Origin: Candidatus Heimdallarchaeota archaeon
Lineage (GTDB): Archaea; Asgardarchaeota; Heimdallarchaeia; Heimdallarchaeales; Heimdallarchaeaceae
Length of the DNA: 15,564 bases
NCBI GenBank assembly: GCA_021399395.1
Contig: JAAFKJ010000045.1
Span: 1 to 15,564, forward strand
Direction: 5' to 3'
Numbering within the stretch: position 1 is the stretch's first letter; every line of letters starts with the position of its first letter. The notes under the pieces are model-generated. The model did no database searches. It was not told the origin of the DNA and was given only the letters and a program-made list of their open reading frames with translations. The translations under genes were made by a program, and so were the position numbers. Below are positions 1 to 14,830 of this stretch, piece by piece.

Positions 1-1388
1 GATGAGAACAAATCATCTGTTAAATATCCTTCATCTATCTTTCGTAAAATCAATCGGAAAGACTTTCTCACTTCATCAACTGTCATCTCATTTTTCTTAG
101 CAAATTGATATTTTGCCTCGGTAGAAATCCAAGGGAGAATTGAAGCTTCTTTGCTATAGATCAGTAGAGCAAAAGTTCTAGCAGTTTCTTGCTCTATTCT
201 TGAAATATCAATCTCATTTAAGGTAAGTTCAGCTTTACTTAGAAGGTCTTCAAGCATCTCTTTGGAACGAATAGGGACTTTCTTTGTATCTAAGATAAGA
301 AGAGCTTGAACTTTATTCTTAATTGTGTCAACTTCTTCTACGATTTCAAGCTTAAAATCCTGATACGTTTCAGCTGATATCGGCGGCGCATCGAAGAAAC
401 TGAAAGATGATTTAGCAGCATGATAGGGTAATGAGAAAAAATTTTCTAAACTTTGATATATTTTGGCCCATCTATAACCGCCATATCTCATCAGAATCAC
501 ACTGCAGTTATGAAAGACTGCATAAATTGGTCCAAAAATTGTAGCAATCCAACTTGCAAGGAGTAATCCAGTACCAAACAGTGCCATTGAATAAATCGGA
601 CCTAATCCAGTAAGGTCCTCAATTAGTCTAAGTAAATCAAGATATTGAAGATAATTTGGTGATCCTAGAGGACCAATTGTTGGTAATAAGTCAAAAGTAT
701 AGAATATGGTTGCATACCCAATTCTAAAGATTCTAACAATCAATGTGGGTATTGCAATAAATACAAGAGGTGTTACAGCTAGATTGATTACTTCCCCTAC
801 TCCTCTCCTAATAGGATAGTTTTTGATCATTTTTTGTTCTTTTAACATTAATTCATCTAGTTCTTCAGAAACTTCCATAATTTCTTGGGATTTTTCCCCA
901 GAAAGGATGTTTGAGGCTACTAAAACATATTTGCGGTAAAGCTGCAATAGAGGGACAAGTTCCCTTAATCCTGTTGGTACTAAAATATCATAAATGACTA
1001 ATAATATCTTGCCAATTACTGATACAAAAGTAAAAAATCCAGCTAATACAATTAGAGAAATCTTTGTAATAAACCTTCTAACTTTTGGTGGTAATAATGT
1101 CTTATACAACCATGAGAACAGCTTAACAAATGGAAAAATAACGATATAATATGCAAGCAAAAAAATGAATGCCACGGGAGCGAAATAAGGAATGATATTC
1201 TCTCTAGTAAAAAACCATGTTTTATCTATCCCTTGTTTAATTGCTTCACTGCTTTCACTACCTTTTCTTTTGAGAAACAATTTTGTATTTTCATAGGAAA
1301 TCTGTAGCTTGGGATGATTCTGCATGAATTTGTGGAATCTGCTTATCTCTTCTTCCTCTTGAATTTGTTTGACCATTTCCTCAACCAT
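1..1388 (-). CDS. Hypothetical multi-pass membrane protein (>460 aa), C-terminus beyond the window's left edge; absent from the ORF track
   Basis: Manual translation from ATG at 1388 (MVEEMVKQIQEEEEISRFHK...) stays open to position 1 (...RKSFRLILRKIDEGYLTDDLFS), with an in-frame TAG just upstream. It has about four hydrophobic segments (e.g. FAPVAFIFLLAYYIVIFPFV, ISLIVLAGFFTFVSVIGKILLVIY, MALFGTGLLLASWIATIFGPIYAVF) followed by a charged helical region. Alternative start at ATG 1376. Confidence 0.85.
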   Translation of the reverse strand, partial: MVEEMVKQIQEEEEISRFHKFMQNHPKLQISYENTKLFLKRKGSESSEAIKQGIDKTWFFTRENIIPYFAPVAFIFLLAYYIVIFPFVKLFSWLYKTLLPPKVRRFITKISLIVLAGFFTFVSVIGKILLVIYDILVPTGLRELVPLLQLYRKYVLVASNILSGEKSQEIMEVSEELDELMLKEQKMIKNYPIRRGVGEVINLAVTPLVFIAIPTLIVRIFRIGYATIFYTFDLLPTIGPLGSPNYLQYLDLLRLIEDLTGLGPIYSMALFGTGLLLASWIATIFGPIYAVFHNCSVILMRYGGYRWAKIYQSLENFFSLPYHAAKSSFSFFDAPPISAETYQDFKLEIVEEVDTIKNKVQALLILDTKKVPIRSKEMLEDLLSKAELTLNEIDISRIEQETARTFALLIYSKEASILPWISTEAKYQFAKKNEMTVDEVRKSFRLILRKIDEGYLTDDLFS

Positions 1389-1436
1389 TGTGATTAGCTA
1401 TTTGTTATTTAATCTCCCATGAGGTACTTACTAATC

Positions 1437-3395
1437 TTACTTCACTAAGTATTCTCTTATATGTGTTTTTGCTAGTTCTATCTCTTCTTCATTGCATTCA
1501 TATAACTCGTATATTTTCTTATCTATAATTTCATCAATTGAAGTAAACTCGTTAGTTTGCTCAAGTAAACGCTTATTTGTTTGTTCTTCAAGAAAATCTA
1601 TTTCCATCCCATTTGGCATTACAACAGGTAGATCGTGTAAATACATGGGAAGATAATGCAGATACTTTCCCATTATTTCAGTACTTGAATACATATTTGA
1701 ATAGAGATGGCTATACAATTCTGAATTGAGTAGAGCTAATATGTATTCTAGACTTATTCCTAGATCCAAAGCTCTCTCCTTAAGATGACCAATTAGAAAA
1801 ATATCTTTACAAGCATAACCTTCAGAATCAATTGTTGCTCTAATTCGAAGAGCATGCTGGCATACTATGATCTTCTTATCTCCAAAGTATTTGTAATTTG
1901 GAAAATTATTTTCCACACTTTTTGCTTTTTTGTGGTCGTAATTTATCCAGTACCCTCTCCAATTTATGTTATAGCGATTAATCTCTCTATTTCCACCATA
2001 AGCTTTACCACCAATAAACTTGATAGGATTTTCTCCAAGTGGATTTTCAGATACGAATAATTCTCTTAAACCACTTTTATGAAATGAAATTGCCCATCTG
2101 AACCGAATAAGGTCACCTAAAGTTAGAGAACTGAGAGAGAATATTCTATTTATCATATCGAGTATAGAGTTTTCGAGTAGATAGATTGTGCTATTTTTTG
2201 TTTTCAAGAAATTATCTACTTCAACAGTTCTCAATCTCTTAGAGAAATTACTATCCACTAGTTCATCATAATCGTTGACTCTAGTAACCCTAGTCTGCTT
2301 TTTTAATGGATTTTGCTTATCCAAAATAATGATGATTGGGTAAACAGCTGGTTGAAATACATTGTTATGAGATAAATCGACAATCTGAGAGATTTGATTT
2401 TCTCTAAGAAATTTTTCTCTCAATTTTCTAGCGTATCTAGAACTGAGAAATTTGTTTGGAATAATATATCCCAACTTTCCATCAGAAGTTAGAAGATTGT
2501 AACCTAAAGAAAGAAAACATGAGTAGATATCAAAATGACCGGTGGCAGCATCAGGAAAGTGGTCTAAACAGATTTGTTTTGTTTCAGAGTCCATTATTTT
2601 TGATTCTATATATGGTGGATTTCCTACAACATACTTGAACTTTGAATTTTTCAGTTCTTTAATTTTCATAACATCATTTTTGTCATTTTTTATAAGCGAA
2701 TTTGTTTGGTAAATACTAGGTTCAAAAATCGTTTCTAAAGAATAATCCTTCCCCAACTGAGAAATAATTTGATTAGCAAGACTAATTTGAGAAATAAATA
2801 CGGCTTCAGGATCGATATCGAAACCGATTATGTTATTACAAACATAATTCTGGATATAATTGGATTCTAAGTTTTGATTTTGTGCAGTCTCAATCACTTT
2901 TTCTGCACTTCTACGCAAAAACAAACCAGAACCACATGATAGATCTATAATCTGTTCTTCATGTTGAAAAATACTAGATTGAAACCCCACTTGTGCTATT
3001 AGATAATCGACTATTTGTAACGGTGTGAATACTATCCCTTTATCTTGAATGTAAGACGTTGTGAGAATATTCTGATATAGGGACCCCAAGATATCTTGAT
3101 GTGAATGTTGTTTGTGTTGAGTCCTCAAATTGAATAAATCGATGTAAATTGAATTAAATGAATTATCTAATGAACCTGATAGAATGGTTGGAAATGATTG
3201 TGATATTCGTTCTTGTTTCTGAAGTAATGTTTCCTCAGGTTTTAGATGGTTATTTATTTCAAGACTAGTGAGAAGGAATAGCTCACCAAGAATACGAAAA
3301 CCTTCTTGATGTACAGTATCTTCTTTGAAACCTTGTTTTAACAACATTCTATCTATTTTTGATAAAATTCTTTCAAGGTGAATCTGAAATCCCAT
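1437..3395 (-). CDS. Amino-DNA (probably N6-adenine) methyltransferase, gamma class, TaqI/Eco57I-like, with C-terminal target-recognition region
   Basis: Motif X GIVFTP, motif I DLSCGSGLFL, GFDID and catalytic motif IV VGNPPY occur in gamma order. The C-terminal KIIV...YILALLNS...LPV segment resembles TaqI-like C-terminal domains. Confidence 0.9.
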   Translation of the reverse strand: MGFQIHLERILSKIDRMLLKQGFKEDTVHQEGFRILGELFLLTSLEINNHLKPEETLLQKQERISQSFPTILSGSLDNSFNSIYIDLFNLRTQHKQHSHQDILGSLYQNILTTSYIQDKGIVFTPLQIVDYLIAQVGFQSSIFQHEEQIIDLSCGSGLFLRRSAEKVIETAQNQNLESNYIQNYVCNNIIGFDIDPEAVFISQISLANQIISQLGKDYSLETIFEPSIYQTNSLIKNDKNDVMKIKELKNSKFKYVVGNPPYIESKIMDSETKQICLDHFPDAATGHFDIYSCFLSLGYNLLTSDGKLGYIIPNKFLSSRYARKLREKFLRENQISQIVDLSHNNVFQPAVYPIIIILDKQNPLKKQTRVTRVNDYDELVDSNFSKRLRTVEVDNFLKTKNSTIYLLENSILDMINRIFSLSSLTLGDLIRFRWAISFHKSGLRELFVSENPLGENPIKFIGGKAYGGNREINRYNINWRGYWINYDHKKAKSVENNFPNYKYFGDKKIIVCQHALRIRATIDSEGYACKDIFLIGHLKERALDLGISLEYILALLNSELYSHLYSNMYSSTEIMGKYLHYLPMYLHDLPVVMPNGMEIDFLEEQTNKRLLEQTNEFTSIDEIIDKKIYELYECNEEEIELAKTHIREYLVK

Positions 3396-3471
3396 TTCAC
3401 TCGCCTGAAATACGCTGAATCGAGAATATATTAATTATTCAAAAACTTTAGTATGTCAGAATTGCAAAATT

Positions 3472-3963
3472 CTACAAATATCTGAATTTTAACTTCTGAA
3501 ATCTTATTTTACAGGAATTACACAGAACCGAAGGTTTCTGGACTAATTTCTCAAAACTATCTGTTTCATTCATCACACAATCGTTTGTGCATTTTACTAA
3601 CCCCAGTACAATCCCAACGAAATAAATTACTTCTTTAGCTACCAAAGTTCTTGTTGCCATCTTTGTGGTGGAAATTATAGCTCCTTTCAGTGGTTCAGCA
3701 TATCCATAAACTGACTGACTATCTACAGCAATAGGATAAGAAATTAGCCACATACAGAAAGTTATACTATCAGAATTGAGATTTCGGACTAATCCTATGG
3801 CATCAAATGAGTTACTTGCAGAATCCCACGCTGTTTTACTTGGTAGTCTCAATCCAACAGATCGAAAACTAATGCCAAAAACATCATTGAGGTGCCTTTC
3901 AACATGTTCTGAAATCTCATCAGGCACTTTTTCTCCATAAAATATCTTAAAATCTCTTGGCAA
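3472..3963 (-). CDS. Archaemetzincin (peptidase M54)-like protein, predicted catalytically inactive
   Basis: Matches the family scaffold (VYGYA, GAIIST, KE...G.VLGL..C-x3-CVM...LCxxC), but HExxHxxGxxH reads YFVGIVLGLVK. TTG start. Confidence 0.8.
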   Translation of the reverse strand: MPRDFKIFYGEKVPDEISEHVERHLNDVFGISFRSVGLRLPSKTAWDSASNSFDAIGLVRNLNSDSITFCMWLISYPIAVDSQSVYGYAEPLKGAIISTTKMATRTLVAKEVIYFVGIVLGLVKCTNDCVMNETDSFEKLVQKPSVLCNSCKIRFQKLKFRYL

Positions 3964-4056
3964 GTTTACTCAAGTGTATTATTGTCAATCAACGCTAATA
4001 ATCTTTATGATTCTCTCAATGGTTTCAGACCTTTTCATGAATCTATTTAAAAGGTG

Positions 4057-4509
4057 TTAAAACCTAGAAAAAGCTAACTTTGAAGATAACACTATTCTTT
4101 CATTTTTACCCATTTTTACTGCATAATTCACTAGTTTAGGATCTTTCCTGAACTCCCATTTTTTGCTTATTTTCATGTTAGGTGGTAAGTTAAAACCAGA
4201 ATTGAAAGTACTGGTTATAATAGTTCGTTTGTTCTTGTGTACGATTGATATATCTGCAATCTCAATATAGCCTTCTTGATTAACTGAAAAAACTTTGACT
4301 AATTCATGAATTTTATCATAGAAAAAAATATTTTTTTCAGATTGGATTTTTGACTTTCCTTTAATTATTGTCGAATTAAATTCTATTATTTCAGAACCTA
4401 TTGATTTTATTGTTAAAGAAGTCTTGAATTCTCCTTCTTCATTCTCCAAATTTCCTTCCCATTCACCATATAGCCATTCTAATTCTGTTATTGGATTATA
4501 GAATTCCAT
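4057..4509 (-). CDS. FABP/nitrobindin (THAP4-like, DUF1794)-type beta-barrel protein
   Basis: N-terminal LEWLYGEWEG fits the calycin GxW motif typical of nitrobindin-like proteins. It is 150 aa with alternating beta-strand patterns and an internal EGYIE motif. Confidence 0.55.
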   Translation of the reverse strand: MEFYNPITELEWLYGEWEGNLENEEGEFKTSLTIKSIGSEIIEFNSTIIKGKSKIQSEKNIFFYDKIHELVKVFSVNQEGYIEIADISIVHKNKRTIITSTFNSGFNLPPNMKISKKWEFRKDPKLVNYAVKMGKNERIVLSSKLAFSRF

Positions 4510-4532
4510 CTCATTTACTACTAATGAATGAA

Positions 4533-4540
4533 TTTAAAAA
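4533..4540. promoter_or_regulatory. Candidate bidirectional TATA box (TTTAAAAA) shared by divergent genes
   Basis: Sits 25-32 bp before ATG 4565 (+) and 24-31 bp before ATG 4509 (-), in the centre of a 55-bp spacer. Confidence 0.5.
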
Positions 4541-4564
4541 GTCTAGCATAGATAATTTTTCAAC

Positions 4565-5293
4565 ATGTCTAAGACTAAGAAGATCGATCTTGAAACTGGA
4601 CAAGTTCTAGATTGGAAAATTGACATAGAACTGTTAACTGAAGCGTTTACACATCCAAATTACATCTCAGAAAATCCTAATGCTAAGGATTTTGAAAGAC
4701 TCGAATTTCTAGGTGATGCTGTATTAGACTTAATGTCAGCTGAATGGTTATTCGGAGAAACTAATGAAGAAGTAGGAATAATGTCACAACTTCGATCGCT
4801 TTTAGTAAGAACAAATGCCCTCGCTGAAGTTGGCAAAAATCTCGGTATAGCAAAACATGTTCGAACAGAGTCAAAGTATCAAGTTGTGGAAACAGATTTG
4901 GAAGATGTAGTAGAAGCTTTATTTGGTGCTTTTTACCTCTCTGAAGGGAGAGATGTTACCCGTGAGTTTTTCAAGAAATTATTCATGAAAAATTTGAAGA
5001 GCTTCAAGAAAGATTTAGAAAATGATGAAGGGCGAGAAAAGATCCTTAGATTGACTGTATGTGAGAATAATCCAATAAATATCTTACAAGAATTCTTCCA
5101 AAAAAGAGACTTAGATCTTCCAGAGTATAATATGATCACAAGAAAGGGGAGTGATCATGAACCAACTTTTCATATGGAATGCAAGGTCGTAATAGAAAAT
5201 CAAATGATCTCAACAGTTGGCAAAGGTCAGAACAGAAAAGCTGCGAAAAAGGAAGCAGCAGATAAGATGCTAAAGAAACTTAAAATTGATTGA
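4565..5293 (+). CDS. rnc: Ribonuclease III (class 1: RNase III domain + dsRBD)
   Basis: Signature ERLEFLGDAVL, AFTHP, second catalytic motif EDVVEALFGA (D114/E117), and C-terminal dsRBD NPINILQE...GSDHEPTF...GKGQNRKAAKKEAA. Confidence 0.96.
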   Translation: MSKTKKIDLETGQVLDWKIDIELLTEAFTHPNYISENPNAKDFERLEFLGDAVLDLMSAEWLFGETNEEVGIMSQLRSLLVRTNALAEVGKNLGIAKHVRTESKYQVVETDLEDVVEALFGAFYLSEGRDVTREFFKKLFMKNLKSFKKDLENDEGREKILRLTVCENNPINILQEFFQKRDLDLPEYNMITRKGSDHEPTFHMECKVVIENQMISTVGKGQNRKAAKKEAADKMLKKLKID

Positions 5294-5342
5294 TTAATTT
5301 TCTTTTCACATTAGGTTTAAGAAGTATAGAGTTCTCTCATTT

Positions 5343-6173
5343 ATGATGAAAGAAGTTTCTATTGATGTTGAAAAAGCTATTAATTTCATCAGAGATAAGG
5401 GAAAAAACATTGATAAGTTGAAACTATGTTTAATGCTAGATGAAAACTCTGACACAATGGATAAACTTTCCAATTATCTAACTTTGCAAAATCCTGACGG
5501 TGGAATACCTTTTCGAATGAGAAAAGATTGTATTAGTACAATAGGTCCAACGATCACATTCTTCAAGGATTTCTTGATACTTGATAAGAAAGATATTGTA
5601 AGTGAATTTCTAGATAACGCAGTAAATTTTATATTAGAAAATCAGCACGAAGATGGGTTTTTTGAAGAACCAATAAGCATAAAAAATTTTGACTACTCTC
5701 CATGGGAAACACCTGGGACTGTACCAAATAGGATTTACTGCACATCGATAGTTCTAAACTTCTTATTAGGGTTGAGAGATACTAGATATGGTAAGATGAT
5801 TCAAAAATGTATAATGTACTTATCACGCAACTGGAGAGATGATACTGGTTTTAAGAGTTATCCACATGCTTTGTGGAATGCAATCCCATCATTCATTAAA
5901 ATCAAGGGTATGGAAGATAGTATCTCACTTCGAGGTCTTGAAATGCTTCAAACCTTTCAACTAAACAGCTACCCTTCTTCCTCATTAGTTTGGATGATTG
6001 AAAGTTTTATCAATACCGATTTAGAAAAACATGATTGTGTATCAACTATTGTTGAGCTATTAGAACAGCGACAATTATCAGATGGACGATGGGCTTCGGA
6101 AGATGGTGAAGAGTATGACCCTTCCACAACTTTAACTGTACTTCTAGTACTTAATAGATTAAACTACATTTGA
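5343..6173 (+). CDS. Prenyltransferase/squalene-oxidase (QW) repeat protein, alpha/alpha-barrel
   Basis: QxxDG repeats LQNPDGG, NQHEDGFF and RQLSDGRW, plus degenerate WRDDTGF, each preceded by an amphipathic helix. Start may be ATG 5346. Confidence 0.75.
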   Translation: MMKEVSIDVEKAINFIRDKGKNIDKLKLCLMLDENSDTMDKLSNYLTLQNPDGGIPFRMRKDCISTIGPTITFFKDFLILDKKDIVSEFLDNAVNFILENQHEDGFFEEPISIKNFDYSPWETPGTVPNRIYCTSIVLNFLLGLRDTRYGKMIQKCIMYLSRNWRDDTGFKSYPHALWNAIPSFIKIKGMEDSISLRGLEMLQTFQLNSYPSSSLVWMIESFINTDLEKHDCVSTIVELLEQRQLSDGRWASEDGEEYDPSTTLTVLLVLNRLNYI

Positions 6174-6225
6174 ATACCCGTGTCCTCAAGAAAGTTTTTA
6201 ATTATCATGTGAAATTCTATTCAGA

Positions 6226-7176
6226 ATGATTATTGATGGACATACAGATGTTTTATGGGCCTTAAAAAGAGAAATGAGACCTTTTAGTGAAGAGTCAGAA
6301 ATAGGTCATGTTGATTTACCTAGATTAAGGAAAGGTGGTGTGGGAGCAGCCTTTTTTGCAATCTTTCCCTCGTGGAGTGATTTTGATATTTATCGAGGAG
6401 TTGACCAATGGTTCAAGTTGATAGAAGATCCCAATAATCAGCTGATGCAGATCAAAAGAGTTGAAGATTTAGAGAAGTGTCGATTGGAGAATAAAGTAGG
6501 TGCAATACTTCACTTTGAGGGAAGCGGTGGTTTAGATTCAGACTTGATGAATCTCAGAAATTATTACAGATTGGGATTAAGGAGTATTGGTTTAAGCTGG
6601 TCAAATGTAAATAAATTCGCAACTGGTGTGTCTTATAATCCACAGACAGGAGAGGGGCTAGAAATAGATAGAGGATTAACTAGTGAAGGACGAGAATTAG
6701 TTAAAGAAATGAATGATTTGGGTATAATTGTAGATGTAAGTCATCTGAATGAAAAATCTTTTTGGGACGTTATCGAAGTTACGACTAAACCGCTAATAGC
6801 CTCTCATAGTAACGCTTATTCTGTATGTGGACATTTTCGAAATCTAAAGGATGATCAGATAAAAGCTGTTGCTGAAAAGAATGGCACTATAGGTCTGAAT
6901 TTCTGTGTGGCTTTCCTTCATTCTGAGAAAAAGAAAGAGGTAATACTACTGGAAGATATGAGAAAACATATAGATTACATCGTTGATTTAGTTGGGATCG
7001 AACATATTAGTTTTGGTTCAGACTATGATGGGGCAACTGTACCTGATGTTGTCAAAGATGTTAGCTATTTCCCAATCTTAGTTAAACATCTAGAAGACAA
7101 TGGATATAGTGAAGAGGATATCGAAAAAATAAGTAGTAAGAATTTCATAAGAGTGATGAAAGACGTCTGGAATTAG
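6226..7176 (+). CDS. Membrane/renal dipeptidase family (peptidase M19)
   Basis: IIDGHTD (HxD), HVDLPRLRKGG, HFEG, VDVSH, ASHSN, RNLKDDQI and FGSDYDG motifs. Confidence 0.95.
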   Translation: MIIDGHTDVLWALKREMRPFSEESEIGHVDLPRLRKGGVGAAFFAIFPSWSDFDIYRGVDQWFKLIEDPNNQLMQIKRVEDLEKCRLENKVGAILHFEGSGGLDSDLMNLRNYYRLGLRSIGLSWSNVNKFATGVSYNPQTGEGLEIDRGLTSEGRELVKEMNDLGIIVDVSHLNEKSFWDVIEVTTKPLIASHSNAYSVCGHFRNLKDDQIKAVAEKNGTIGLNFCVAFLHSEKKKEVILLEDMRKHIDYIVDLVGIEHISFGSDYDGATVPDVVKDVSYFPILVKHLEDNGYSEEDIEKISSKNFIRVMKDVWN

Positions 7177-7177
7177 A

Positions 7178-7648
7178 TTATTCATCCTCTAGATCATCTA
7201 ATTTAGCTAGTTCGAGTTGTCTACCATAGCCTTCGTCAACTTCAAAGATTAAGCCTTTTTCAATTAGCTTATCTACTCTCTCTCTAACAATCCTTCGCGA
7301 AGCTGAACCTCGTTCTTTTCTAACTTCATCCGTAAGTTGAGAGATGTTTAACCTGCCTTTTCGTTCGAGAGAACTAATTACAGATTCAGATATGGTGTCG
7401 TATTTCAAATCAGGAAATCTCATCAATATTTGATCTTTCATGGAAAGAGTTTGAGAAATTAAGGAAAAGGGTGCTTTAGAAATTTGTAAAGCTGAAGTCA
7501 AAACCTGTAATAACCCCATCATCTGTTTAAGTTCTGGATTGCTATCTGAAACTTTATTCTGAAGGGTATTAATTTGAAGAATAACATAATTAATTTTATT
7601 TTCTAATTCTTTCATTCTACCTTCAAGATTTTGTTCTTCTTCAGACAT
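7178..7648 (-). CDS. Coiled-coil plus C-terminal winged-helix (ArsR/MarR-like) transcription regulator
   Basis: N-terminal heptads (LEGRMKELENKINYVILQINTLQNKV) and C-terminal wHTH LNISQLTDEVRKERGSASRRIVRERVDKLIEKGLI. ATG 7648 is preferred over the track's GTG at 7657, which lies in an SD-like GTGAT. Confidence 0.8.
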   Translation of the reverse strand: MSEEEQNLEGRMKELENKINYVILQINTLQNKVSDSNPELKQMMGLLQVLTSALQISKAPFSLISQTLSMKDQILMRFPDLKYDTISESVISSLERKGRLNISQLTDEVRKERGSASRRIVRERVDKLIEKGLIFEVDEGYGRQLELAKLDDLEDE

Positions 7649-7681
7649 TTTAATCACTAAATGCTTTGAAATTTGATAATA

Positions 7682-7972
7682 TTAAATGGCGATTTTTTCA
7701 CTAACTTTTTCCTTTGAATCACTAAATAGATTCTGACTAATGATTTTGCGAATACTAAAGATTTTCATTGACCGCTTATAGGATTGAGTTACTTCTTTTC
7801 TTAATTCCTTAGGCATACTACTATTTCTAATGATTCTTCTAACTTTTCTCTTATTTCTACTTCTCTTATAAGAGTTAGAACCTGTTATAAAGATAAGAAG
7901 TAGAGGAAGAAATAGAAGTAAATATGATACATAATAGATTGAAACTAAGACGTACCAGATTTTGTTCATCAT
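7682..7972 (-). CDS. Small single-pass membrane protein with a highly basic soluble domain
   Basis: Hydrophobic N-terminus WYVLVSIYYVSYLLLFLPLLLIFI followed by KRSRNKRKVRRIIR...MPKELRKEV. Spaced 18 bp and about 33 bp from its co-directional neighbours. Confidence 0.75.
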   Translation of the reverse strand: MMNKIWYVLVSIYYVSYLLLFLPLLLIFITGSNSYKRSRNKRKVRRIIRNSSMPKELRKEVTQSYKRSMKIFSIRKIISQNLFSDSKEKVSEKIAI

Positions 7973-7990
7973 TTTCTACTCAACTACCTT

Positions 7991-8335
7991 TTAGTCGTCT
8001 CTATCGGTTCTAATATTTGCGCTCTTTAAAGCGTTTCCAACAAGATTGAAGCTATTTGAGAAATTCATAACGATTTCTCTAACCATATCCTCTGGTAATC
8101 CTTTTCCTTTCAATTCATCATATAATGCAGCGATTCCTTTTCCAAAATTGGTAGCAATATCTGGATCATAAATTGCAGAAAAGACGTTTCTTATCAAGGA
8201 AGGAACTTCAGAAGAAACTGCGCTTAGAATTTCTTTAATTTCTTCAGCATCCATTTCTACGTTTTTGCTCTTGGTTTTCTTCACTTTTTTCTCGATTTCT
8301 TCACCGAGTTTTTCTCCGAGTTCATCATAATTCAT
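7991..8335 (-). CDS. Hypothetical alpha-helical protein, first gene of a three-gene operon
   Basis: Amphipathic helical sequence (ILSAVSSEVPSLIRNVFSAIYD...LYDELKGKGLPEDMVREIV). ATG 8335 is preferred because SD-like GAGGT (8344-8348) precedes it; the track start is GTG 8350. Confidence 0.8.
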   Translation of the reverse strand: MNYDELGEKLGEEIEKKVKKTKSKNVEMDAEEIKEILSAVSSEVPSLIRNVFSAIYDPDIATNFGKGIAALYDELKGKGLPEDMVREIVMNFSNSFNLVGNALKSANIRTDRDD

Positions 8336-8374
8336 TTTTTTATACCTCACGTTTTATTCTATAATACTCTTGAT

Positions 8375-8412
8375 TGGTCACATATTTTTAAGATGCTGGT
8401 CACTAATGACCA
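8375..8412. promoter_or_regulatory. Putative operator: TGGTCA-CTAA-TGACCA inverted repeat (8397-8412) plus an extra TGGTCAC half-site (8375-8381)
   Basis: Seen directly in the AT-rich spacer upstream of the operon that encodes the wHTH protein. The two TGGTCAC copies are 22 bp apart. Confidence 0.7.
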
Positions 8413-8439
8413 CTATTTTAAATGATTCTTAAACTTTTT

Positions 8440-9795
8440 TCAGAATAAAGCCTTTTTCTTCATCATATATATGAACAAAGCTACAGACAGTACTAATGGA
8501 AAAATAGATGTTATCACTGCAAAGACAGGCATAACCATAATTCCCTGAGGAAGTCTGTCGGCTGTTAAACCCATGAGAAGCACAATCGAAATTGAACCTG
8601 AAATTCCAATAGTATTGTTAATTCCATATGCAGTAGATCTTCTCAGTTTATTCGAAAAAGAACCAACTAAGCTATAGAGACTAATACTTGAGGTAACATA
8701 CATTGGAAAACTATAGGCTATCAATCCTACTGTTGAGTTGGTCGGAAAAAGAGCTATGATCGTATAGATTACTACCTGAACAAATGTACAAGCTATAATA
8801 CTAATAAGAACACCTTTTGTTTTAACGATTCTTCCTAATCCAAGTGCAAGAACCACTCCTATTGCAGTCGTAGCAATTAAAAAGTAGCCAAAGTGCGTTG
8901 CAGGTGTCTGTAATGTGTCTATGTAATATAGAGAAGCGTAAGCCCAAAACCCACCTGACGTTGCTTGTTGAAAGAAAGAAATAATCATTAAAACGGAAAA
9001 AATGACTGTAAAATCAGTAAGTTTTCCTCTTGGGATATTTTCATCTTGAACATCTGTTCTTTTTTTAACAGGTTTTTTGTCTTTTGTAAATAAGACTATA
9101 CTAAAGGCAATGAAACAGCCGATTACAGCAATAAATAGTTGAACTCCTTGTGCAGGATTTTTTGCAATCTCTGGTGAAAAGAATTTTGATAATGCAGCTG
9201 CAAAGGTGGCAATTGCATTTGTAGGATTTAAAGAATCATGTATAATTAGTTTATCAAATCCAATACTAGCATACCAGTCCAAACTGAATGTAAATGCATT
9301 GTCGTGAATAAATGCAGCTAAGGGACTGGAAATTAACCAAGATAAACTGAAAGTAGCAGTAATCTCACCTAAAATTACTTCCTTTTTCTTCGAAGAGTTA
9401 ATAGTTGTAAAAGAATAGATATTAGCGGTTTGAGCAGAAATTAGGATATTTCCAAGTAATAACACAACAAGAAAAATCACTGCATTATTGATGAAAAGGA
9501 GCGTAAAATACATTAATCCTGATCCTAACATTCCAATAAGTACAAATGGCTTATTACCAAATTTATCAGCAGCTAGTCCCCAAACAGTTGTTCCTATTAC
9601 TATTACGAAACTTGGAATTATAGCTACAAATCCAAGAATGAAATATGAATCAACTTCAAAAATTCTGGCTAGCCAAATAGGTGCGTAAGGTGCAAACATT
9701 GCAGTTGAAAAACCAAGAAAGAAAATACCAAGAAGCGAAAGAATCTCATTTCTTTCAAAGAAAAATCTCTTCTTCTTATTTTCTTGGCTATTCAT
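8440..9795 (-). CDS. Major facilitator superfamily transporter
   Basis: About 12 hydrophobic helices, MFS motif A WGLAADKFGNK and a central hydrophilic loop (KDKKPVKKRTDVQDE). Confidence 0.9.
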   Translation of the reverse strand: MNSQENKKKRFFFERNEILSLLGIFFLGFSTAMFAPYAPIWLARIFEVDSYFILGFVAIIPSFVIVIGTTVWGLAADKFGNKPFVLIGMLGSGLMYFTLLFINNAVIFLVVLLLGNILISAQTANIYSFTTINSSKKKEVILGEITATFSLSWLISSPLAAFIHDNAFTFSLDWYASIGFDKLIIHDSLNPTNAIATFAAALSKFFSPEIAKNPAQGVQLFIAVIGCFIAFSIVLFTKDKKPVKKRTDVQDENIPRGKLTDFTVIFSVLMIISFFQQATSGGFWAYASLYYIDTLQTPATHFGYFLIATTAIGVVLALGLGRIVKTKGVLISIIACTFVQVVIYTIIALFPTNSTVGLIAYSFPMYVTSSISLYSLVGSFSNKLRRSTAYGINNTIGISGSISIVLLMGLTADRLPQGIMVMPVFAVITSIFPLVLSVALFIYMMKKKALF

Positions 9796-9913
9796 ATTCC
9801 TTCTAATTTGCTCGAATTAAAAAGCTTTATACTATAGTCTTTGAATGTCATTTGAAGCGAAAACTTGATATTATATCAATTTAATAATTCAATGAAAGAG
9901 TGTTCGATCAGCA

Positions 9914-11086
9914 ATGAGTGATAATGAACCAACAAGTGTAAAAGAAATTTTAATTGAGATGAAAACGCTCTCCGAAATATGTGTAGATTTAGCTTTTGCT
10001 TCGCTTCTCTATTCGGATAAGCTTGTTGCAACACAAGTATTAGTTTTGGAAGAAAAAATTGATAGTTTGTACAAAAATCTACTTGATCGACTCTCTGTTT
10101 CAATCAAGAGCTTAAGTCAAGCTGAAGAGCTCAGAATTTACTATATTATTGGTGAAGCTAATAATCTTATTTCTGATAGTGCTGCTGATATGGCTTCGCT
10201 AGTTTTAATGAACATTGATATTGAAGATGAAATCAAATTAGTTCAGCAACATATGGATCAACTAGTTGATGTAGTCGAACTGAAAGAGATTTCCCCTCTG
10301 TGTGGAACATCCGAACTTACATCTGATTTGCATGATATGATTGGTATTGATGTTGCTGCCATCATACGACCAGAAGAAGGTCTCTTGATAGATTATGATG
10401 AAATTATGAAATGTGGTGATCTTCTTGTTTTTCGAGGTCCTCTCGAGAATGTTAACCAATTCATTGAGTTGGCAAATGGAAGAGTAGAATCTGTTGAAAA
10501 AGCAAGAGAGATAATAATTAGAGATGCTGAGGTTTATGAAAAAGAGAAACTCAAGTACCATCAGGATCTCCTCGTAACTATGAAAGAATCCGCTGAACTC
10601 ATTGTAGATTTAGCTTATCTTTTTGCATTAGAAGATTTGCCAAATGTAAAAAATCTGATTATACAAACAGAAGAACGAGTAGATAAACTGCAATTCGAAA
10701 TCATACAGGAAGTATTGAGACTCTACAAACAAGAGCTAATAGGAGAAAAGACCTTGATGGCTTACCTTAGAATGGCAGATTCATTTGAAGAAATTGCAGA
10801 TGCTGCAACTAAAATTGCATTTGGAGTAACTATGAGACATAAACCATATGAGATTCTTGAAGAAGTTATAGATGATTCTTCAGAATCACTTGATTTCATA
10901 CACGTGAGTAAGGATTCTCCATATGTAGGTATGACTGTCAAAAAAGCTGAATATACAGACGATTTCTTCCAAATTCTAGCAGTTAGGAAAAAAGGTAAAT
11001 ATTTCTTTTTCCCCCAAGATGACGCAAAAATAGATGCAGGAGATGGTCTCCTGATAAAAGAATACTCAAGTCCAGAAGATGAGTAA
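9914..11086 (+). CDS. Tandem-duplicated PhoU + TrkA-C (RCK_C) protein (archaeal COG3273-like)
   Basis: Two homologous halves, KEILIEMKTLSEICVDLAF and (from about 10559) QDLLVTMKESAELIVDLAY. Each is followed by an ISDSAADMA/IADAATKIA helix and an RCK_C motif (SPLCG...GDLLVFRG; SPYVG...GDGLLI). Confidence 0.85.
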   Translation: MSDNEPTSVKEILIEMKTLSEICVDLAFASLLYSDKLVATQVLVLEEKIDSLYKNLLDRLSVSIKSLSQAEELRIYYIIGEANNLISDSAADMASLVLMNIDIEDEIKLVQQHMDQLVDVVELKEISPLCGTSELTSDLHDMIGIDVAAIIRPEEGLLIDYDEIMKCGDLLVFRGPLENVNQFIELANGRVESVEKAREIIIRDAEVYEKEKLKYHQDLLVTMKESAELIVDLAYLFALEDLPNVKNLIIQTEERVDKLQFEIIQEVLRLYKQELIGEKTLMAYLRMADSFEEIADAATKIAFGVTMRHKPYEILEEVIDDSSESLDFIHVSKDSPYVGMTVKKAEYTDDFFQILAVRKKGKYFFFPQDDAKIDAGDGLLIKEYSSPEDE

Positions 11087-11091
11087 AAGAA

Positions 11092-11922
11092 TTAAAGATA
11101 GGCATTAAGCCATTTTACAAGATCCGCAAAAGCTTCTTCTCGCTTCTCTTTAATTTCTGTATACATCTCGTGCTTTCCATTTTTGTAGATTATTACAGTA
11201 AGGTCAGTGTTTTTCAGATCTTCAGTCAACTCATCTAAATTTATGATCATAGTGTCTAACTCACCTTTCTGAATAAGAATAGGGATTTTTATTGTAGAAA
11301 TCTTTTCTTTTACATCTTTATAGTGATCAATTAGATTCAATCCGTATCTAACAGTAGCTTGTTTGTAATTAATTAAAGGATCAGTAACGTAATCTTCTAC
11401 AGATTCAGGATCAGAAGAGAGTTCTTCAGGAATAATACCTGCAGGTCCTTTGAACGTTGGAAGGACTTTCACAATTATCCGAGCAAATATATTTAGAAAC
11501 GTTGGTAAAGGAGGAACTTGTGTACCAGTCCCTGATAGAATTAATCCCTTCATTTCCTTTTGGTGTTTGATAGCGAATCTTTGTGCCAATAAAGAACCCA
11601 TAGAGTGTCCCACAATAAAAATCGGAATATCTTTGTTTTCTTTCTGGATGATTTGAGTTAGTTTATTGCAATCATCAACCATATCCTCTAAACTTTTACT
11701 GTGATTTCTTCTACCTTCACTCTTACCATGACCTCGATGGTCATTACCATACACTGCAAAATTCTTAGTAACCAGATAATCAACTAGGTGCTTGTATCTC
11801 CCAACATGTTCAACACCACCGTGAATGATTTGTACAATAGCTTTTGGTTTATCAGGAATCCAACTCTGATAGTAAATTTGATGATTTTCACCACCAGTAA
11901 AAAAATCATCTGTATATTTCAT
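11092..11922 (-). CDS. Alpha/beta hydrolase, lysophospholipase/monoacylglycerol-lipase family
   Basis: HGGVEH, DHRGHGKSEG, nucleophile GHSMG, QKGELD and GKHE motifs. ATG 11922 is preferred (TTTATA lies 26-31 bp upstream on the minus strand) over the track's TTG 11964, which overlaps the upstream gene. Confidence 0.92.
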   Translation of the reverse strand: MKYTDDFFTGGENHQIYYQSWIPDKPKAIVQIIHGGVEHVGRYKHLVDYLVTKNFAVYGNDHRGHGKSEGRRNHSKSLEDMVDDCNKLTQIIQKENKDIPIFIVGHSMGSLLAQRFAIKHQKEMKGLILSGTGTQVPPLPTFLNIFARIIVKVLPTFKGPAGIIPEELSSDPESVEDYVTDPLINYKQATVRYGLNLIDHYKDVKEKISTIKIPILIQKGELDTMIINLDELTEDLKNTDLTVIIYKNGKHEMYTEIKEKREEAFADLVKWLNAYL

Positions 11923-11953
11923 AAAAGAAAAAATATTTTGGTAACCTATAAAT

Positions 11954-12853
11954 CTAATTGTCAAACCTAAATTTTTCCATAATTAGGTTACCAAATCCCT
12001 TAATCATATCTTGAATAGCTAGAACATTCTTGTCTTCTGAAACCATTTCCATGATTGATTTCTTTTCTAGCATAGCTTTAACAAAAATAGGATTGTAAGG
12101 GATTTTGCCTATAACTGGGAAAGAATCATGAAAGTCTTCTTGTATTTTCTGAGAAAACTCTTCATTTATATCAGATCTATTAATAATAATTAACCCGGGG
12201 ATTTTAAACTCCTTCAGCAGCTGTAATATCCTATCCAAATCATGATATCCTGAGATTGTTGGTTCAGCAACAACAATAGCAAAATTTGTTCCAATTAGTG
12301 AACTAATTACAGGACAGCCAATACCTGGAGATCCATCAATTATAACTAACTTCTTGTCATTTTTTGCTGCTACTGTTTTAGCAATTTTTCTCACTTCAGC
12401 TACTAGCAATCCTGAGCTTTCTTCACCAGGACTTAATCGTGCATGAACCATCTCACCTATTCTTGTCTTTGAGACAAAATATTGTCCTGATACAACGTCA
12501 TTCATTGTAATTGCTGAAACAGGACAAGCATGATAACAGAGCGAACATCCTTCACACTTTGTAGGATCTATGGTATGCTCTTCAGTAACTGCACCAAAAC
12601 GACATCTTGCTCTACATTCCCCACAATCTGTACATATTTCTTTGTCAACATATGCTTTTTTTAGTCCATGGTAATCAAAACTTTCTGTTTCCTCTGGAGT
12701 AAATATGAGATAGAGATCAGCTGCATCTACATCAGCATCTGCAAGTATAATGTGTTCCTTGAGATAACTAGCAAGAGCAGCAATTATTGTACTCTTACCA
12801 GTTCCGCCTTTTCCTGAGATTACAGTTACTTGTTTTACATCTTCCTCTTTCAT
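11954..12853 (-). CDS. MinD-superfamily P-loop ATPase with inserted 2x[4Fe-4S] ferredoxin domain (COG1149), paralog 2
   Basis: Deviant Walker A SGKGGTGKS, DADVDAADL, CTDCGECRARC, CEGCSLCYHACP and DGSPGIGCP. Confidence 0.93.
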   Translation of the reverse strand: MKEEDVKQVTVISGKGGTGKSTIIAALASYLKEHIILADADVDAADLYLIFTPEETESFDYHGLKKAYVDKEICTDCGECRARCRFGAVTEEHTIDPTKCEGCSLCYHACPVSAITMNDVVSGQYFVSKTRIGEMVHARLSPGEESSGLLVAEVRKIAKTVAAKNDKKLVIIDGSPGIGCPVISSLIGTNFAIVVAEPTISGYHDLDRILQLLKEFKIPGLIIINRSDINEEFSQKIQEDFHDSFPVIGKIPYNPIFVKAMLEKKSIMEMVSEDKNVLAIQDMIKGFGNLIMEKFRFDN

Positions 12854-13692
12854 TATATCATCTCCTGAATTCTTACAAGTACATCTCGAAATTCCTCTTT
12901 GAATTTCGGATATAGATCTATCAAAGTTTTACCAGTTGAATAATTTCTAGCAATTTCCAAATCAAAAGGAATCTTCATAAGAATGGGTATATTTTCCTTT
13001 ACACAATATTTCTCCAATTCCTCATCACCTACTCCATCCTTGTTAATTATGACGCCAAATTTCCTGTTCATTATTCTTAGAGTTTCTACAACTATTTTCA
13101 TATCAGATAAACCAAAAGGCGTGGGCTCACTTACAACCACGATGTAATCGCAATCAGAAATGGTTTCAACCATAGGACATGCTGAACCGGGGGGAGAATC
13201 AATTATAACTACTTCCTCATCACCTTTGATTTCTTCTTTCAATCTGCTAATAACAGGTGTGGAGAGTTCTTCACCAACGATTATTTCACCAAAATGAAAT
13301 AATAGATCATCATTTTTGCCTTCAAGGATGCTACCAATAACTCTTGGTTTCTCAGTGATTGCGTCTTCGGGACACACATAAGTACAAACACCACATCCAT
13401 GACACATTTTATCAAAAAGTAAAATCTCATCTGGCATTTTTATAAGAGCATTATATTGGCAACTTTCATTACATTTCCCACACAAGGTACATTTCTCTTT
13501 ATCAATAACAGGTATTAGTACGTCACTTGTTCCAATTATTTTAGTCTCCAGTCCAAGGAAAAGAGAACAATTAGGTTCGTCTACATCTGCATCTAGAAGA
13601 TGAGCTCCTTTCGATGAGAGTGCAAGACCAACAGCTACAGTGGTTTTTCCAGTTCCGCCTTTACCTGATACTATTGCTATTTCCATAACCAA
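12853..13692 (-). CDS. MinD-superfamily P-loop ATPase with inserted 2x[4Fe-4S] ferredoxin domain (COG1149), paralog 1
   Basis: SGKGGTGKTT, DADVDEPN, CTLCGKCNESC, CHGCGVCTYVCP, DSPPGSACP and EPTPFGLSD. Its stop overlaps the next start (TAATG). Confidence 0.93.
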   Translation of the reverse strand: MVMEIAIVSGKGGTGKTTVAVGLALSSKGAHLLDADVDEPNCSLFLGLETKIIGTSDVLIPVIDKEKCTLCGKCNESCQYNALIKMPDEILLFDKMCHGCGVCTYVCPEDAITEKPRVIGSILEGKNDDLLFHFGEIIVGEELSTPVISRLKEEIKGDEEVVIIDSPPGSACPMVETISDCDYIVVVSEPTPFGLSDMKIVVETLRIMNRKFGVIINKDGVGDEELEKYCVKENIPILMKIPFDLEIARNYSTGKTLIDLYPKFKEEFRDVLVRIQEMI

Positions 13693-13700
13693 GCCTTCAA

Positions 13701-14048
13701 TTAGTGACTACAACCATCATCTTTGGTTGCTAGATGTAAAGTTCCATCTTTGAAGCGTTGGATAGTATCCTTAAGTGTGCCATCTGCACCCATGTATATA
13801 GCTAAACCTAATTCTTGACCTATCATTACTGCTCTGGCTCCTGCACCTTTAAGCAAAACTCCATTGCAATGATTGGCAAGAAACTCCATGGGGAGACCTG
13901 ATCCACCTTTGTGATCGCTTTTATTATCAATTATATCTATTTCATCATTTTCGTCATTCCAAATAGCATAAAATGGAACATGTCCAAAATGCATGCCTAC
14001 TATGGAATTTATATCATCTTTTGTATCTAATGGTACTGCATATTTCAT
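13701..14048 (-). CDS. NifB/NifX family (dinitrogenase FeMo-cofactor/orange-protein-like, COG1433) protein
   Basis: MKYAVP...HFGHVPFYAIW...GAGARA pattern, 115 aa, supported by operon context. Confidence 0.88.
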   Translation of the reverse strand: MKYAVPLDTKDDINSIVGMHFGHVPFYAIWNDENDEIDIIDNKSDHKGGSGLPMEFLANHCNGVLLKGAGARAVMIGQELGLAIYMGADGTLKDTIQRFKDGTLHLATKDDGCSH

Positions 14049-14056
14049 TTTATCAC

Positions 14057-14386
14057 CTATATTTTTGAAAGTGCATTATTCTTCCACTTATCTATTAACT
14101 CTTTAACAGCAATATTCTCGCCTTGGAATATCTCTATGTTACCACGTCTCAAAACGCTATCAGCGTTGGGTCCTAAACGAGGAACAATAACAACATTGAC
14201 TTCATTATTGATAAGGAATTCAACTGCTTGAAATCCTGCTCCTCCTCGTGCATTTACAGCTGGATTGCTGACAAAATCAAATGTATCTTTTTCTGAATCA
14301 TAAAAACAGAAATAATTACATCTACCAAATCGTTCATACATTTTAGCGTCTTCTTGATTAGAAGAACTGGGGATTGCTACTTTCAT
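14057..14386 (-). CDS. NifB/NifX family (orange-protein-like, COG1433) protein
   Basis: MKVAIP...RFGRCNYF...NPA...GGAG.QAVEFL...GPNA. The true start is probably ATG 14386, 1 bp after the DUF134 stop; the track's extension to 14440 overlaps DUF134. Confidence 0.9.
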   Translation of the reverse strand: MKVAIPSSSNQEDAKMYERFGRCNYFCFYDSEKDTFDFVSNPAVNARGGAGFQAVEFLINNEVNVVIVPRLGPNADSVLRRGNIEIFQGENIAVKELIDKWKNNALSKI

Positions 14387-14387
14387 T

Positions 14388-14684
14388 TTATTTGCCTTCT
14401 TGATCAGATGGTTCTTCGAATAGAATAGCTTTAACATCAAAGAATGCTTGAGCTACTTTATGATGAGCAGAAGCAAGATCTCGACTAAAAGAAGCCTGAG
14501 AAATACCCATTTTTTCTGCAGCTTCTTGTTGCTTCAAACCTAGAAAATCTGCATAATGGAGTGCGGTAATCTCTTCTTTAGTTAATTTAACCTGCTCCAA
14601 ATCTTTTATAGGTATAGAAACAGGTTTGAATATGTGCCCTTCATAATTAATGCAATTTCTGGGTATCTTTCTCTGTTGAACCAT
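14388..14684 (-). CDS. DUF134 (UPF0251, COG1342) HTH DNA-binding protein
   Basis: FKPVSIP...LEQVKLTKEE.TAL.YADFLGLKQQEAAEKMGISQASFSRDL.SA..KVA.A...KAI matches the family pattern. It is in the typical position at the head of NifX/MinD-ferredoxin operons. Confidence 0.9.
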   Translation of the reverse strand: MVQQRKIPRNCINYEGHIFKPVSIPIKDLEQVKLTKEEITALHYADFLGLKQQEAAEKMGISQASFSRDLASAHHKVAQAFFDVKAILFEEPSDQEGK

Positions 14685-14707
14685 CAAAATGAATTTATCT
14701 AATTGAA

Positions 14708-14715
14708 TTAATAAA
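14708..14715 (-). promoter_or_regulatory. Candidate TATA box (TTTATTAA) with purine-rich BRE-like AAAGA for a leaderless DUF134 operon transcript
   Basis: Lies 24-31 bp upstream of ATG 14684 on the minus strand. Confidence 0.6.
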
Positions 14716-14723
14716 TCTTTAGG

Positions 14724-14741
14724 TATGAATAATTATTCATA
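14724..14741. promoter_or_regulatory. Perfect 18-bp palindrome TATGAATAATTATTCATA, putative DUF134 operator
   Basis: Exact self-reverse-complement, located just upstream of the BRE/TATA candidate of the DUF134 operon. Confidence 0.75.
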
Positions 14742-14830
14742 ACTCCGTAACGAAAAAAAATGTTTTCTACACATAGAAAGAGACATAAAGGTAAGGAAAT
14801 GTTGTAACGTGTAACGGTCAGAGTGATAGA

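Follow-up and report, generated by a model that had tools for sequence, protein, structure and literature searches.

The window analysed here is a whole 15.6-kb contig (JAAFKJ010000045.1, positions 1 to 15,564) of a metagenome-assembled genome (MAG) of a Candidatus Heimdallarchaeota archaeon (GCA_021399395.1; 2.8 Mb, 82% complete). G+C content is about 31–38% along the window, and the nearest database proteins carry the label Candidatus Heimdallarchaeaceae or Heimdallarchaeota. Three small genes located on the minus strand, referred to as A, B and C, are preceded by a candidate operator whose two arms bracket a TATA-like box. The genes, the operator and the regulatory unit that they may form are the subject of this report.

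The A-B-C genes and the split operator

The three open reading frames (ORFs) span positions 7178-7657, 7682-7972 and 7991-8350. With the starts of A and C set at internal ATGs, as in orthologues and database entries, gene A maps to 7991-8335 and encodes a soluble protein of 114 residues (P0074), which is predicted to be all-helical at low confidence. Gene B (7682-7972) encodes a 96-residue protein featuring an N-terminal hydrophobic anchor and a basic tail, predicted to be cytoplasmic. Gene C (7178-7648) encodes a 156-residue protein (P0001) in which a helical, coiled-coil-like domain at the N terminus is joined to a C-terminal winged helix-turn-helix (wHTH). A and B are separated by 18 nt, B and C by 33 nt. 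A GAGGT ribosome-binding site, read from the sequence, is found on the minus strand at 8344-8348, 8 nt before the ATG of A, and orthologous loci keep either GAGGT or AGGTG before A. The ORFs, the orthologue starts and the short gaps bear out the close-packed minus-strand genes described in the initial annotation, which had been made from the letters of the window. No match of A, B or C reaches threshold in Pfam, NCBIfam or PADLOC. The earlier statements that the three proteins lack enzyme motifs and have no described function or family stand, as nothing fits in these databases or among the names given to A-family proteins.

The gene located upstream of A on the same strand (8440-9795) encodes an MFS transporter (Pfam MFS_1, 2.9e-19). 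The spacer between the two genes carries the bipartite sequence TGGTCAT-N24-GTGACCA (8375-8412; consensus arms TGGTCAC and GTGACCA), in which the left arm (8406-8412) is followed by an internal extra GTGACCA box (8397-8403), a TATA-like box, TTAAAAATAT (8382-8391), and the right arm (8375-8381). Alignment of the MFS-to-A spacers of the genus revealed three conserved heptamer boxes around the A/T-rich TATA-like box; the orientation of the first heptamer box depends on the species, being either inverted or direct. The compact 16-bp palindrome noticed initially, TGGTCA (8407-8412) N4 TGACCA (8397-8402), is present. The conserved operator, however, is a 38-bp split palindrome with N26 between the hexamers, the third TGACCA being located at 8375-8380. 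No TGACCA box occurs in the promoter region of the neighbouring MFS gene (9796-9913).

The pairing of the arms at N24, and not the heptamer itself, exceeds chance. Hexamers are not enriched in the window (8 found versus 6.3 expected, a number reached in 62 of 200 shuffles), nor is the GTGACCA heptamer enriched genome-wide (138 found versus 173 expected). Fifteen of these 138 heptamers are intergenic, and non-coding sequence makes up about 8.5%. When exact 7-mer arms were searched for at gaps of 0-60 in the 2.8-Mb genome, matches were obtained only at gap 24 (two sites). Similarly, when up to one mismatch was allowed at gaps of 14-34, only gap 24 yielded matches (three sites). Searches with 6-mer arms gave three matches at gap 24 (C71:5164, C189:15395 and the window site at 8375-8412) and 0–1 at every other gap. 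All three sites enclose a TATA-like box 2–4 nt from the right arm, and all end 33–39 nt before a start codon. The centres of the half-sites are 31 bp apart, which corresponds to about three helical turns and places them on the same face of the DNA.

Conservation of the trio and of the operator

Using the single protein C as query, matches were found in 20 of the 24 other genomes of the genus and in none of the 16 genomes from other genera of the order. Eleven loci from other genomes of the genus were fetched. All contain A and C; B was detected by tblastn in 10, and the eleventh contains an ORF that would fit B. The MFS gene is found in 10 of these loci (one locus is cut), and a gene for an M19 dipeptidase in 5. 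At the genus loci, C is about 72% identical, A 62% and B 38%.

A wider search, in which a pattern-seeded search with the C alignment covered one genome per species (185,579 species), returned 201 relatives. Locus counts cover the best 80 of these relatives: 23 from the Heimdall lineage, 19 from Thorarchaeia, 29 from Bathyarchaeia, 2 from Promethearchaeota and 7 unlabelled. Hidden Markov models (HMMs) of the three families (E ≤ 1e-5) identified all three genes in 69 of the 80 loci, and at least 6 of the 11 loci without the full trio run into a contig edge. The order A-B-C is found in the Heimdall lineage (full trio in 21/23 loci), and the order C-A-B in Bathyarchaeia (24/29), Thorarchaeia (18/19), Promethearchaeota (1/2) and the unlabelled loci (5/7). 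In an all-against-all clustering of neighbouring genes, only C and A proved to be common across lineages, B being too divergent for BLAST clustering. The remaining neighbours vary with the lineage. MFS (17 loci), M19 and PhoU/TrkA-C genes are found in the Heimdall lineage only; a ClC-like channel, Usp genes and a 460-residue membrane protein in Thorarchaeia only; and a radical-SAM-like gene in Bathyarchaeia only. The MFS gene at 8440-9795 is thus outside the conserved core. The view of the trio as a self-contained module is upheld by the 69 complete loci, which are distributed over three lineages, differ in gene order and have no other neighbour in common; homologues are co-localised in these lineages, though their order changes between them. 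The supposed occurrence in Thermococcales was not seen among the best 80 of the 201 relatives, and no direct search for it was made.

The phyletic distributions of C and A were compared in one sample of 301 Asgard genomes. In the families labelled f1, f6, f11 and f17, C was detected in 22/28, 11/11, 54/76 and 10/19 genomes, and A in 28/28, 11/11, 52/76 and 11/19 genomes, respectively; both are present in the single f28 genome. A was found in none of the other 25 families of the sample. C was also found in the single f22 genome (E 1.9e-35), within a 717-residue open frame, and gave weak matches in f5 (2/21) and f14 (1/68). Wherever present, C is single-copy.

The distribution of the operator was assessed with the pattern at up to one mismatch, the same pattern reversed being used as control. 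The operator is present in all 31 Heimdallarchaeaceae genomes, with 1–7 sites each, and the control gave no match in 29 of them and one match in 2. A class-wide scan of 83 genomes detected the operator in 30/30 genomes of f1 and 11/12 of f6 (2–9 sites in the 11 matched genomes, control 0). In the families in which C is absent or weak, the operator was found in 0/1 (f2), 2/12 (f3), 0/3 (f4), 5/22 (f5) and 0/2 (f7) genomes; combined, these make 7 of 40 genomes with 1–2 sites each, which is the control level. Within the class, the operator is therefore enriched only in f1 and f6, the two families that carry C.

The operator is also conserved beside C outside the class. In 10-kb loci around C, it was found in 18/19 Thorarchaeia (all exact matches), 2/2 Promethearchaeota, 5/7 unlabelled, 14/23 Heimdall and 6/29 Bathyarchaeia loci, and the reversed control in 0/80. 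Most Bathyarchaeia feature a diverged version, TGACCAC-N24-GTGCCCA, detected in 14 of the 29 loci with a degenerate pattern (control 0), and an extra GTGACCA box that overlaps the stop codon of C. The operator is located just upstream of A wherever an A gene was called. In Thorarchaeia and Bathyarchaeia, it is found between C and A, downstream of C, and a search for operator boxes upstream of C in these two lineages found none. The A-B pair of the Thorarchaeia genome G135 is 30 kb away from C and has kept an exact operator, and in the Bathyarchaeia locus L062, which has no A-B pair, C is followed by the operator and then by an MFS gene. The sequence is repeated, conserved in orthologous loci beside the gene of the presumed regulator and rarer elsewhere. 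The notion that the trio has its own candidate operator holds: it is conserved in the promoter driving A-B and, in the Heimdall lineage, also C.

Additional elements were noticed at some of these loci. Several Bathyarchaeia loci (L036, L039, L043, L044 and others) contain, between the operator and A, an extra ORF of 70–80 residues with its own GAGGTG; in this lineage, the unit may include it as a fourth member. Upstream of C, Thorarchaeia loci feature the conserved block GTCA[AG]ACTTATCACTTTCT.CTATTGA, and several Bathyarchaeia loci carry CTTCGAA-N-CTTCGAAA before a TTTATCAA box. These blocks, seen in L053, L059, L072-L074 and L087-L090, are probably the promoter of C itself, or perhaps the site of another regulator.

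Protein C as a candidate reader of the operator

The AlphaFold2 model of C, obtained from a 23-sequence alignment, has a mean pLDDT of 73. Residues from about 80 to 150 are modelled at pLDDT 79–91 as a winged helix, in which three helices (85-97, 102-113 and 118-130) are followed by a beta-hairpin (strands 134-137 and 144-147). Upstream, two long helices (residues 3-36 and 38-57) and shorter helices are predicted. The modelled three-helix bundle with a beta-hairpin wing is what typifies the wHTH fold, in agreement with the early description of the third gene as a wHTH with an N-terminal coiled coil. The relationship of C to known families is distant. A profile search against PDB sequences retrieved Lrp/AsnC-type HTH domains only (E 0.0026–0.004), relative to which the turn preceding the recognition helix is 5 residues longer in C. 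Comparison of the model to the PDB by Foldseek gave no match at E ≤ 0.001, the best matches being Fur/PerR, MarR and cullin WHB domains (TM to query 0.35–0.45, E ≥ 2.6e-3). Scores remain below the Pfam gathering cut-offs for both HTH_24 (14.0 versus 21.9 bits) and MarR (12.1 versus 24.6 bits). The Lrp/AsnC architecture, an N-terminal HTH followed by a C-terminal RAM domain (AsnC_trans_reg), is not found in C, which ends about 10 residues past the wing and has its extra domain at the N terminus. Neither the Pfam scan nor the AlphaFold2 model revealed a recognisable ligand-binding domain. Relatives in the ESM Atlas belong to archaeal clusters that are unnamed or automatically named ‘ArsR’; likewise, homologues of C and A are filed in databases as ‘hypothetical protein’ or, automatically, as ‘ArsR family’ and ‘coiled-coil protein SlyX’.

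Homologues of C from different lineages are about 30% identical overall. The motif LNIS..T..VR..RG.ASRRI.R.R is invariant across the Heimdall lineage, Thorarchaeia and Bathyarchaeia, and the invariant residues fall in RG.ASRRI.R.R, the presumed recognition helix. Its invariance parallels the constancy of the half-sites across lineages.

A winged helix resembling that of C was also identified at the C terminus of a 711-residue ORF in another Heimdall MAG (L034:3195-5327), which is 55% identical to C over residues 45-152. The N-terminal part of this ORF consists of TPR repeats (TPR_12, 8e-30; MalT-like TPR, 7e-14). The protein looks like a sensor-fused paralogue of C, and a similar 717-residue frame is present in G064.

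On the basis of these comparisons we lean, with moderate confidence, towards the view that C is a sequence-specific winged-helix transcription factor for the operator, that the A-B pair may be its conserved primary target and that the Heimdall lineage and Thorarchaeia have a small regulon of this type. C would bind the arms as a dimer or a larger oligomer, assembled through its long N-terminal helices, a candidate oligomerisation domain that could set the 31-bp distance. The occurrence of two single asymmetric half-sites at this distance implies one winged helix per arm. The left half-site lies upstream of the region of the B recognition element (BRE) and the TATA box, and the right one in the interval from the TATA box to the point where transcription is expected to begin. 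C would probably act as a repressor, by sitting on either side of the TBP/TFB site. Archaeal repressors bound between the TATA box and the start block the recruitment of RNA polymerase, and the position of the two arms makes repression somewhat more plausible than activation. In Heimdallarchaeaceae, C is located behind A-B and is proposed to be co-transcribed with them, which would create an autoregulatory loop. In Thorarchaeia and Bathyarchaeia, where the operator lies between C and A, C would control A-B and not itself. The autoregulation put forward in the initial annotation thus agrees with the Heimdall arrangement but not with that of the other two lineages.

Other genes may be under the same control. 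In the genome under study, the two further operator sites precede genes encoding a 485-residue MFS_1/MFS_3 transporter and a 1084-residue protein with a GNAT domain at its N terminus. Of 48 sites retrieved from genomes of Heimdallarchaeaceae, at least 13, from at least 4 genera, are followed by the orthologous MFS gene, at least 5 by the A-B-C operon and at least 3 by the GNAT protein gene. Genes for a PmbA/TldD peptidase, a tocopherol-cyclase-like protein and a secreted protein each follow 3 of the 48 sites, and at several sites there is no clear ORF within 300 nt. The background is higher in Thorarchaeia, where five genomes have 1–4 sites versus 1–2 control matches. Nine Thorarchaeia sites were inspected. 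Three precede A-B, two an orthologue of the GNAT protein gene, two a gene for an MFS-like membrane protein of 479 residues and one a gene for a hydrolase-like protein, the last two labels being sequence readings by eye; one site, located in a G+C-rich stretch, looks like a chance match. The best reading is that of a small regulon common to the Heimdall lineage and Thorarchaeia, which would comprise the MFS_1/MFS_3 transporter and the large GNAT-domain protein. In Heimdall genomes it would also take in the TldD/PmbA peptidase and the tocopherol-cyclase-like protein. At some loci (L137, L141 and C189:13267-15048 of the genome under study), the operator preceding the regulated MFS gene is located in a divergent spacer, on the other side of which is a gene of roughly 590 codons. 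Its product, which we take to be a family-2 glycoside hydrolase from the motif YPRPQ...LNGLWDY, may be co-regulated.

Several observations weigh against C as the reader of this operator. The N-terminal domain, on which the proposed spacing depends, is modelled at pLDDT 56–73 only, and A at pLDDT 57 only. Four Heimdall loci have, in place of the inverted left arm, three GTGACCA boxes in direct orientation (11- and 22-nt spacing); the orientation of the half-sites is therefore variable, unlike what a rigid symmetric dimer would predict. In Bathyarchaeia, the right arm is degenerate though the recognition helix of C is unchanged. C was not found in 6 of the 30 Heimdallarchaeaceae genomes that have operator sites. 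Four of these six genomes are 76–86% complete, and in one (G010) the A gene is at a contig edge. The other two are more complete. In G232 (91% complete, in 710 contigs), 5 sites were detected, 4 of them exact, and no C at E ≤ 0.1; the only A-family gene found in it is A', a diverged copy of A described below. G043 (95% complete, 50 contigs) features a lone A behind a site with 2 mismatches, and neither B nor C. In such genomes, either the locus has not been assembled or the site is read by another factor. Moreover, genomes within a lineage are not independent, and the support amounts to about three deep lineages plus the contrast between f1 and f6 and the five C-less families.

The data on G232 bring in an alternative, in which some other factor reads the split palindrome, or the palindrome is a promoter layout typical of the lineage, and C is a winged-helix protein with another role, for instance a protein scaffold or a general nucleic-acid binder, that happens to lie beside an operator-controlled operon. 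The presence of five sites in a genome with no detectable C would fit this explanation, as would the best Pfam HTH scores of C, all below family cut-offs. The invariance of RG.ASRRI.R.R over phylum-level distances, moreover, is more than one would usually expect of a specificity helix, and a universal target would also account for it. We consider the alternative quite improbable, given that the operator is enriched only in the families carrying C and drops to control level in the other five families of the class, and that it sits beside the C gene in three lineages, the extra box of Bathyarchaeia even overlapping the C reading frame at its end. Furthermore, among the sites inspected, no other regulator gene is consistently found nearby.

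The A-B pair, its paralogues and the surrounding genes

A hydrophobic stretch of 25 residues (19-residue Kyte-Doolittle mean up to 2.29) is found at the N terminus of B, and the tail is strongly basic (20 K+R versus 5 D+E in 66 residues). According to the well-established positive-inside rule, these features fit an N-out, C-in anchor. In Thorarchaeia, the N terminus of B is less hydrophobic and, read by eye, looks amphipathic more than clearly transmembrane. A and B are related to each other. A comparison by hhalign of a 45-sequence B alignment with 44 sequences of the A family matched residues 61-97 of A to residues 32-70 of B over 37 columns (95.6% probability, E 1.3e-8). The common motif is helix-G.P-helix, F(Y)..L...G.P.E.A.....Y, and marks A and B as partial paralogues, A being soluble and B anchored. 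The A family comprises 359 clusters at 50% identity (E ≤ 1e-3). Scanning of 44 members against Pfam and NCBIfam gave coiled-coil noise only, with each family hit in at most 3 members, and in 10 A-family clusters the source names are all ‘hypothetical’ or blank. A close member of the family (P0100, E 4e-27) is filed under a Bacteroidota MAG, as a result of either a binning error or a bacterial occurrence. From these sequence features, A and B are read as a pair that may act at the membrane.

Heimdallarchaeaceae also carry a second, diverged pair, referred to as A'-B', the members of which are 112 and 91 residues long in the genome under study (C183:7374-8941). In all six Heimdallarchaeaceae genomes inspected (the one under study and those of L152-L155 and L157; 4 genera), A'-B' is found directly behind a gene for a CDP-alcohol phosphatidyltransferase. 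The transferase was identified by Pfam in one genome (PF01066, 1.8e-16) and recognised by eye from the aligned motif in the others. There is no C gene among the ORFs listed in the inspected 2–3-kb stretches, and in the genome under study no operator is found within 4 kb of A'-B' at up to 3 mismatches. The location of A'-B' by a lipid-synthesis gene, with neither C nor operator in the inspected stretch, argues for a membrane role of A-B of their own. The most economical guess, which draws on this context, the anchor of B and the presence of a transporter in the regulon, is that A-B may serve in membrane or envelope homeostasis or in an export response.

The paralogous pair bears directly on the switch imagined in the initial annotation, in which A and B would sequester or release C. 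Spelled out further, A and B would be signal-transduction partners of C and not effectors, and would bind its helical N-terminal domain in a Psp-like or anti-repressor switch, with a feedback loop closed by induction of A-B by C. Feedback of A-B onto C is possible and compatible with the wiring, as the conserved first target of C would be A-B, an arrangement typical of regulator-modulator loops. The trio, moreover, has stayed together in three lineages despite the change in order. With a motif in common, A and B could compete for one surface, and C has only helices that could take a protein partner and no recognisable ligand-binding domain. On the other side, A'-B' is found without C in the stretches inspected in all six genomes, pointing to a membrane function that does not need C, and A-B have moved 30 kb away from C in G135. 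A complex prediction for A, B (residues 31-96) and C, with C as partner, gave a score of 0.02 (mark 0.32) and is counted neither way. Overall, we regard sequestration of C by A and B as a tentative possibility.

A bolder version of the favoured reading, in which C is a regulator of the operator, would make C a molecular ruler. Its N-terminal helices would hold two winged-helix heads about three turns apart and thereby clamp a TATA box bound by TBP/TFB and bent by TBP. The regulon would be ancient, common to Asgard archaea and Bathyarchaeia, and A-B would represent a new membrane-homeostasis family with a housekeeping copy in a phospholipid-synthesis operon. We think this combination unlikely. 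If true, the clamp would control archaeal promoters in a way that is not known from MarR- or Lrp-type factors.

Among the genes surrounding the trio, the M19 dipeptidase gene (6226-7176) converges on it from downstream. Adjoining it is a plus-strand gene (5343-6173) encoding an alpha/alpha-toroid-like protein of 276 residues, which matches the alpha-macroglobulin TED domain and squalene-hopene cyclase repeats below threshold; its position next to the M19 peptidase gene is conserved in 13 Heimdall loci. Also on the plus strand, positions 4565-5293 encode an RNase III of bacterial type, with Ribonuclease_3 and dsRNA-binding motif (E 1e-14 to 3e-23). RNase III is uncommon among archaea, and orthologues of this gene accompany the trio locus in 12 Heimdall loci. 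On the minus strand, positions 1437-3395 encode a 652-residue Eco57I/MmeI-like N6-adenine methylase with a TaqI-like specificity domain, a type IIG/IIL restriction-modification-like gene.

This type II restriction-modification methylase gene, 4 kb away from the trio, and the fact that A, B and C are small, unannotated, tightly packed and accompanied by a wHTH regulator would be expected of a cassette, be it mobile, toxin-antitoxin-like or for defence against viruses, that carries its own repressor. Such a cassette is hardly credible. The module is single-copy and keeps a stable, lineage-specific synteny among housekeeping-type neighbours, and the operator also precedes transporter and enzyme genes elsewhere in the genome. 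PADLOC gave no match better than E 0.006, obtained with C (AbiEi HTH part, REase_II), and none with A and B.

Known systems and implications

C can be compared with wHTH repressors of the MarR, Lrp-HTH (HTH_24) and ArsR kind, such as LrpA, MDR1 and Phr. Like these, it features a winged-helix domain and a site that overlaps the core promoter immediately past the TATA box, and is a candidate for control of its own operon and of an efflux-type MFS transporter. In contrast to MarR and Lrp-HTH proteins, however, it scores below every family cut-off and has the 5-residue insertion before the recognition helix. Moreover, its helical domain is N-terminal, in place of a C-terminal ligand or RAM domain, and the two half-sites flank the TATA box at a distance of 31 bp from each other, whereas those repressors use compact palindromes of 16–20 bp.

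In the Psp response (PspF-PspABC), as in the A-B-C module, a soluble helical protein and a small protein of the membrane are encoded by an operon next to the gene of its regulator. Unlike Psp systems, the module has no PspA/IM30, PspB, PspC or AAA+ enhancer-binding domain in A, B or C at E ≤ 1 (Pfam and NCBIfam), and its candidate regulator, a small wHTH, would act at a TATA promoter of the archaeal type. Similarly, small PadR-like wHTH regulators form genetic pairs with HAAS (DUF1700) partners, alpha-helical proteins anchored in the membrane. The three proteins match neither PadR nor DUF1700 at E ≤ 1 (Pfam), and the module differs by the presence of a third, soluble and paralogous partner, a defined split operator and an archaeal host.

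Among the papers listed by full-text searches of the open literature, none dealt with the trio family or its operator, and none with a regulon defined in Asgard archaea or Bathyarchaeia. To our knowledge, these groups have few cultured, genetically tractable members. The comparisons presented here suggest a promoter-occluding wHTH regulator with partner proteins, made of three unannotated families and an unusual split operator that brackets the TATA box. They yield a regulator family with an invariant, presumably DNA-reading helix, a 38-bp site open to synthesis and a short list of putative targets common to the Heimdall lineage and Thorarchaeia, namely the A-B pair, the MFS transporter and the GNAT-domain protein. 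One piece of Asgard gene regulation would thereby be directly testable in vitro with recombinant protein. The half-sites flanking the TATA box pose the question of how a small wHTH protein may deal with the archaeal, eukaryote-like pre-initiation complex. As to the A and B families, they gain a first functional context, as a probably membrane-associated, operator-controlled pair of paralogues that is also found beside a lipid head-group transferase.

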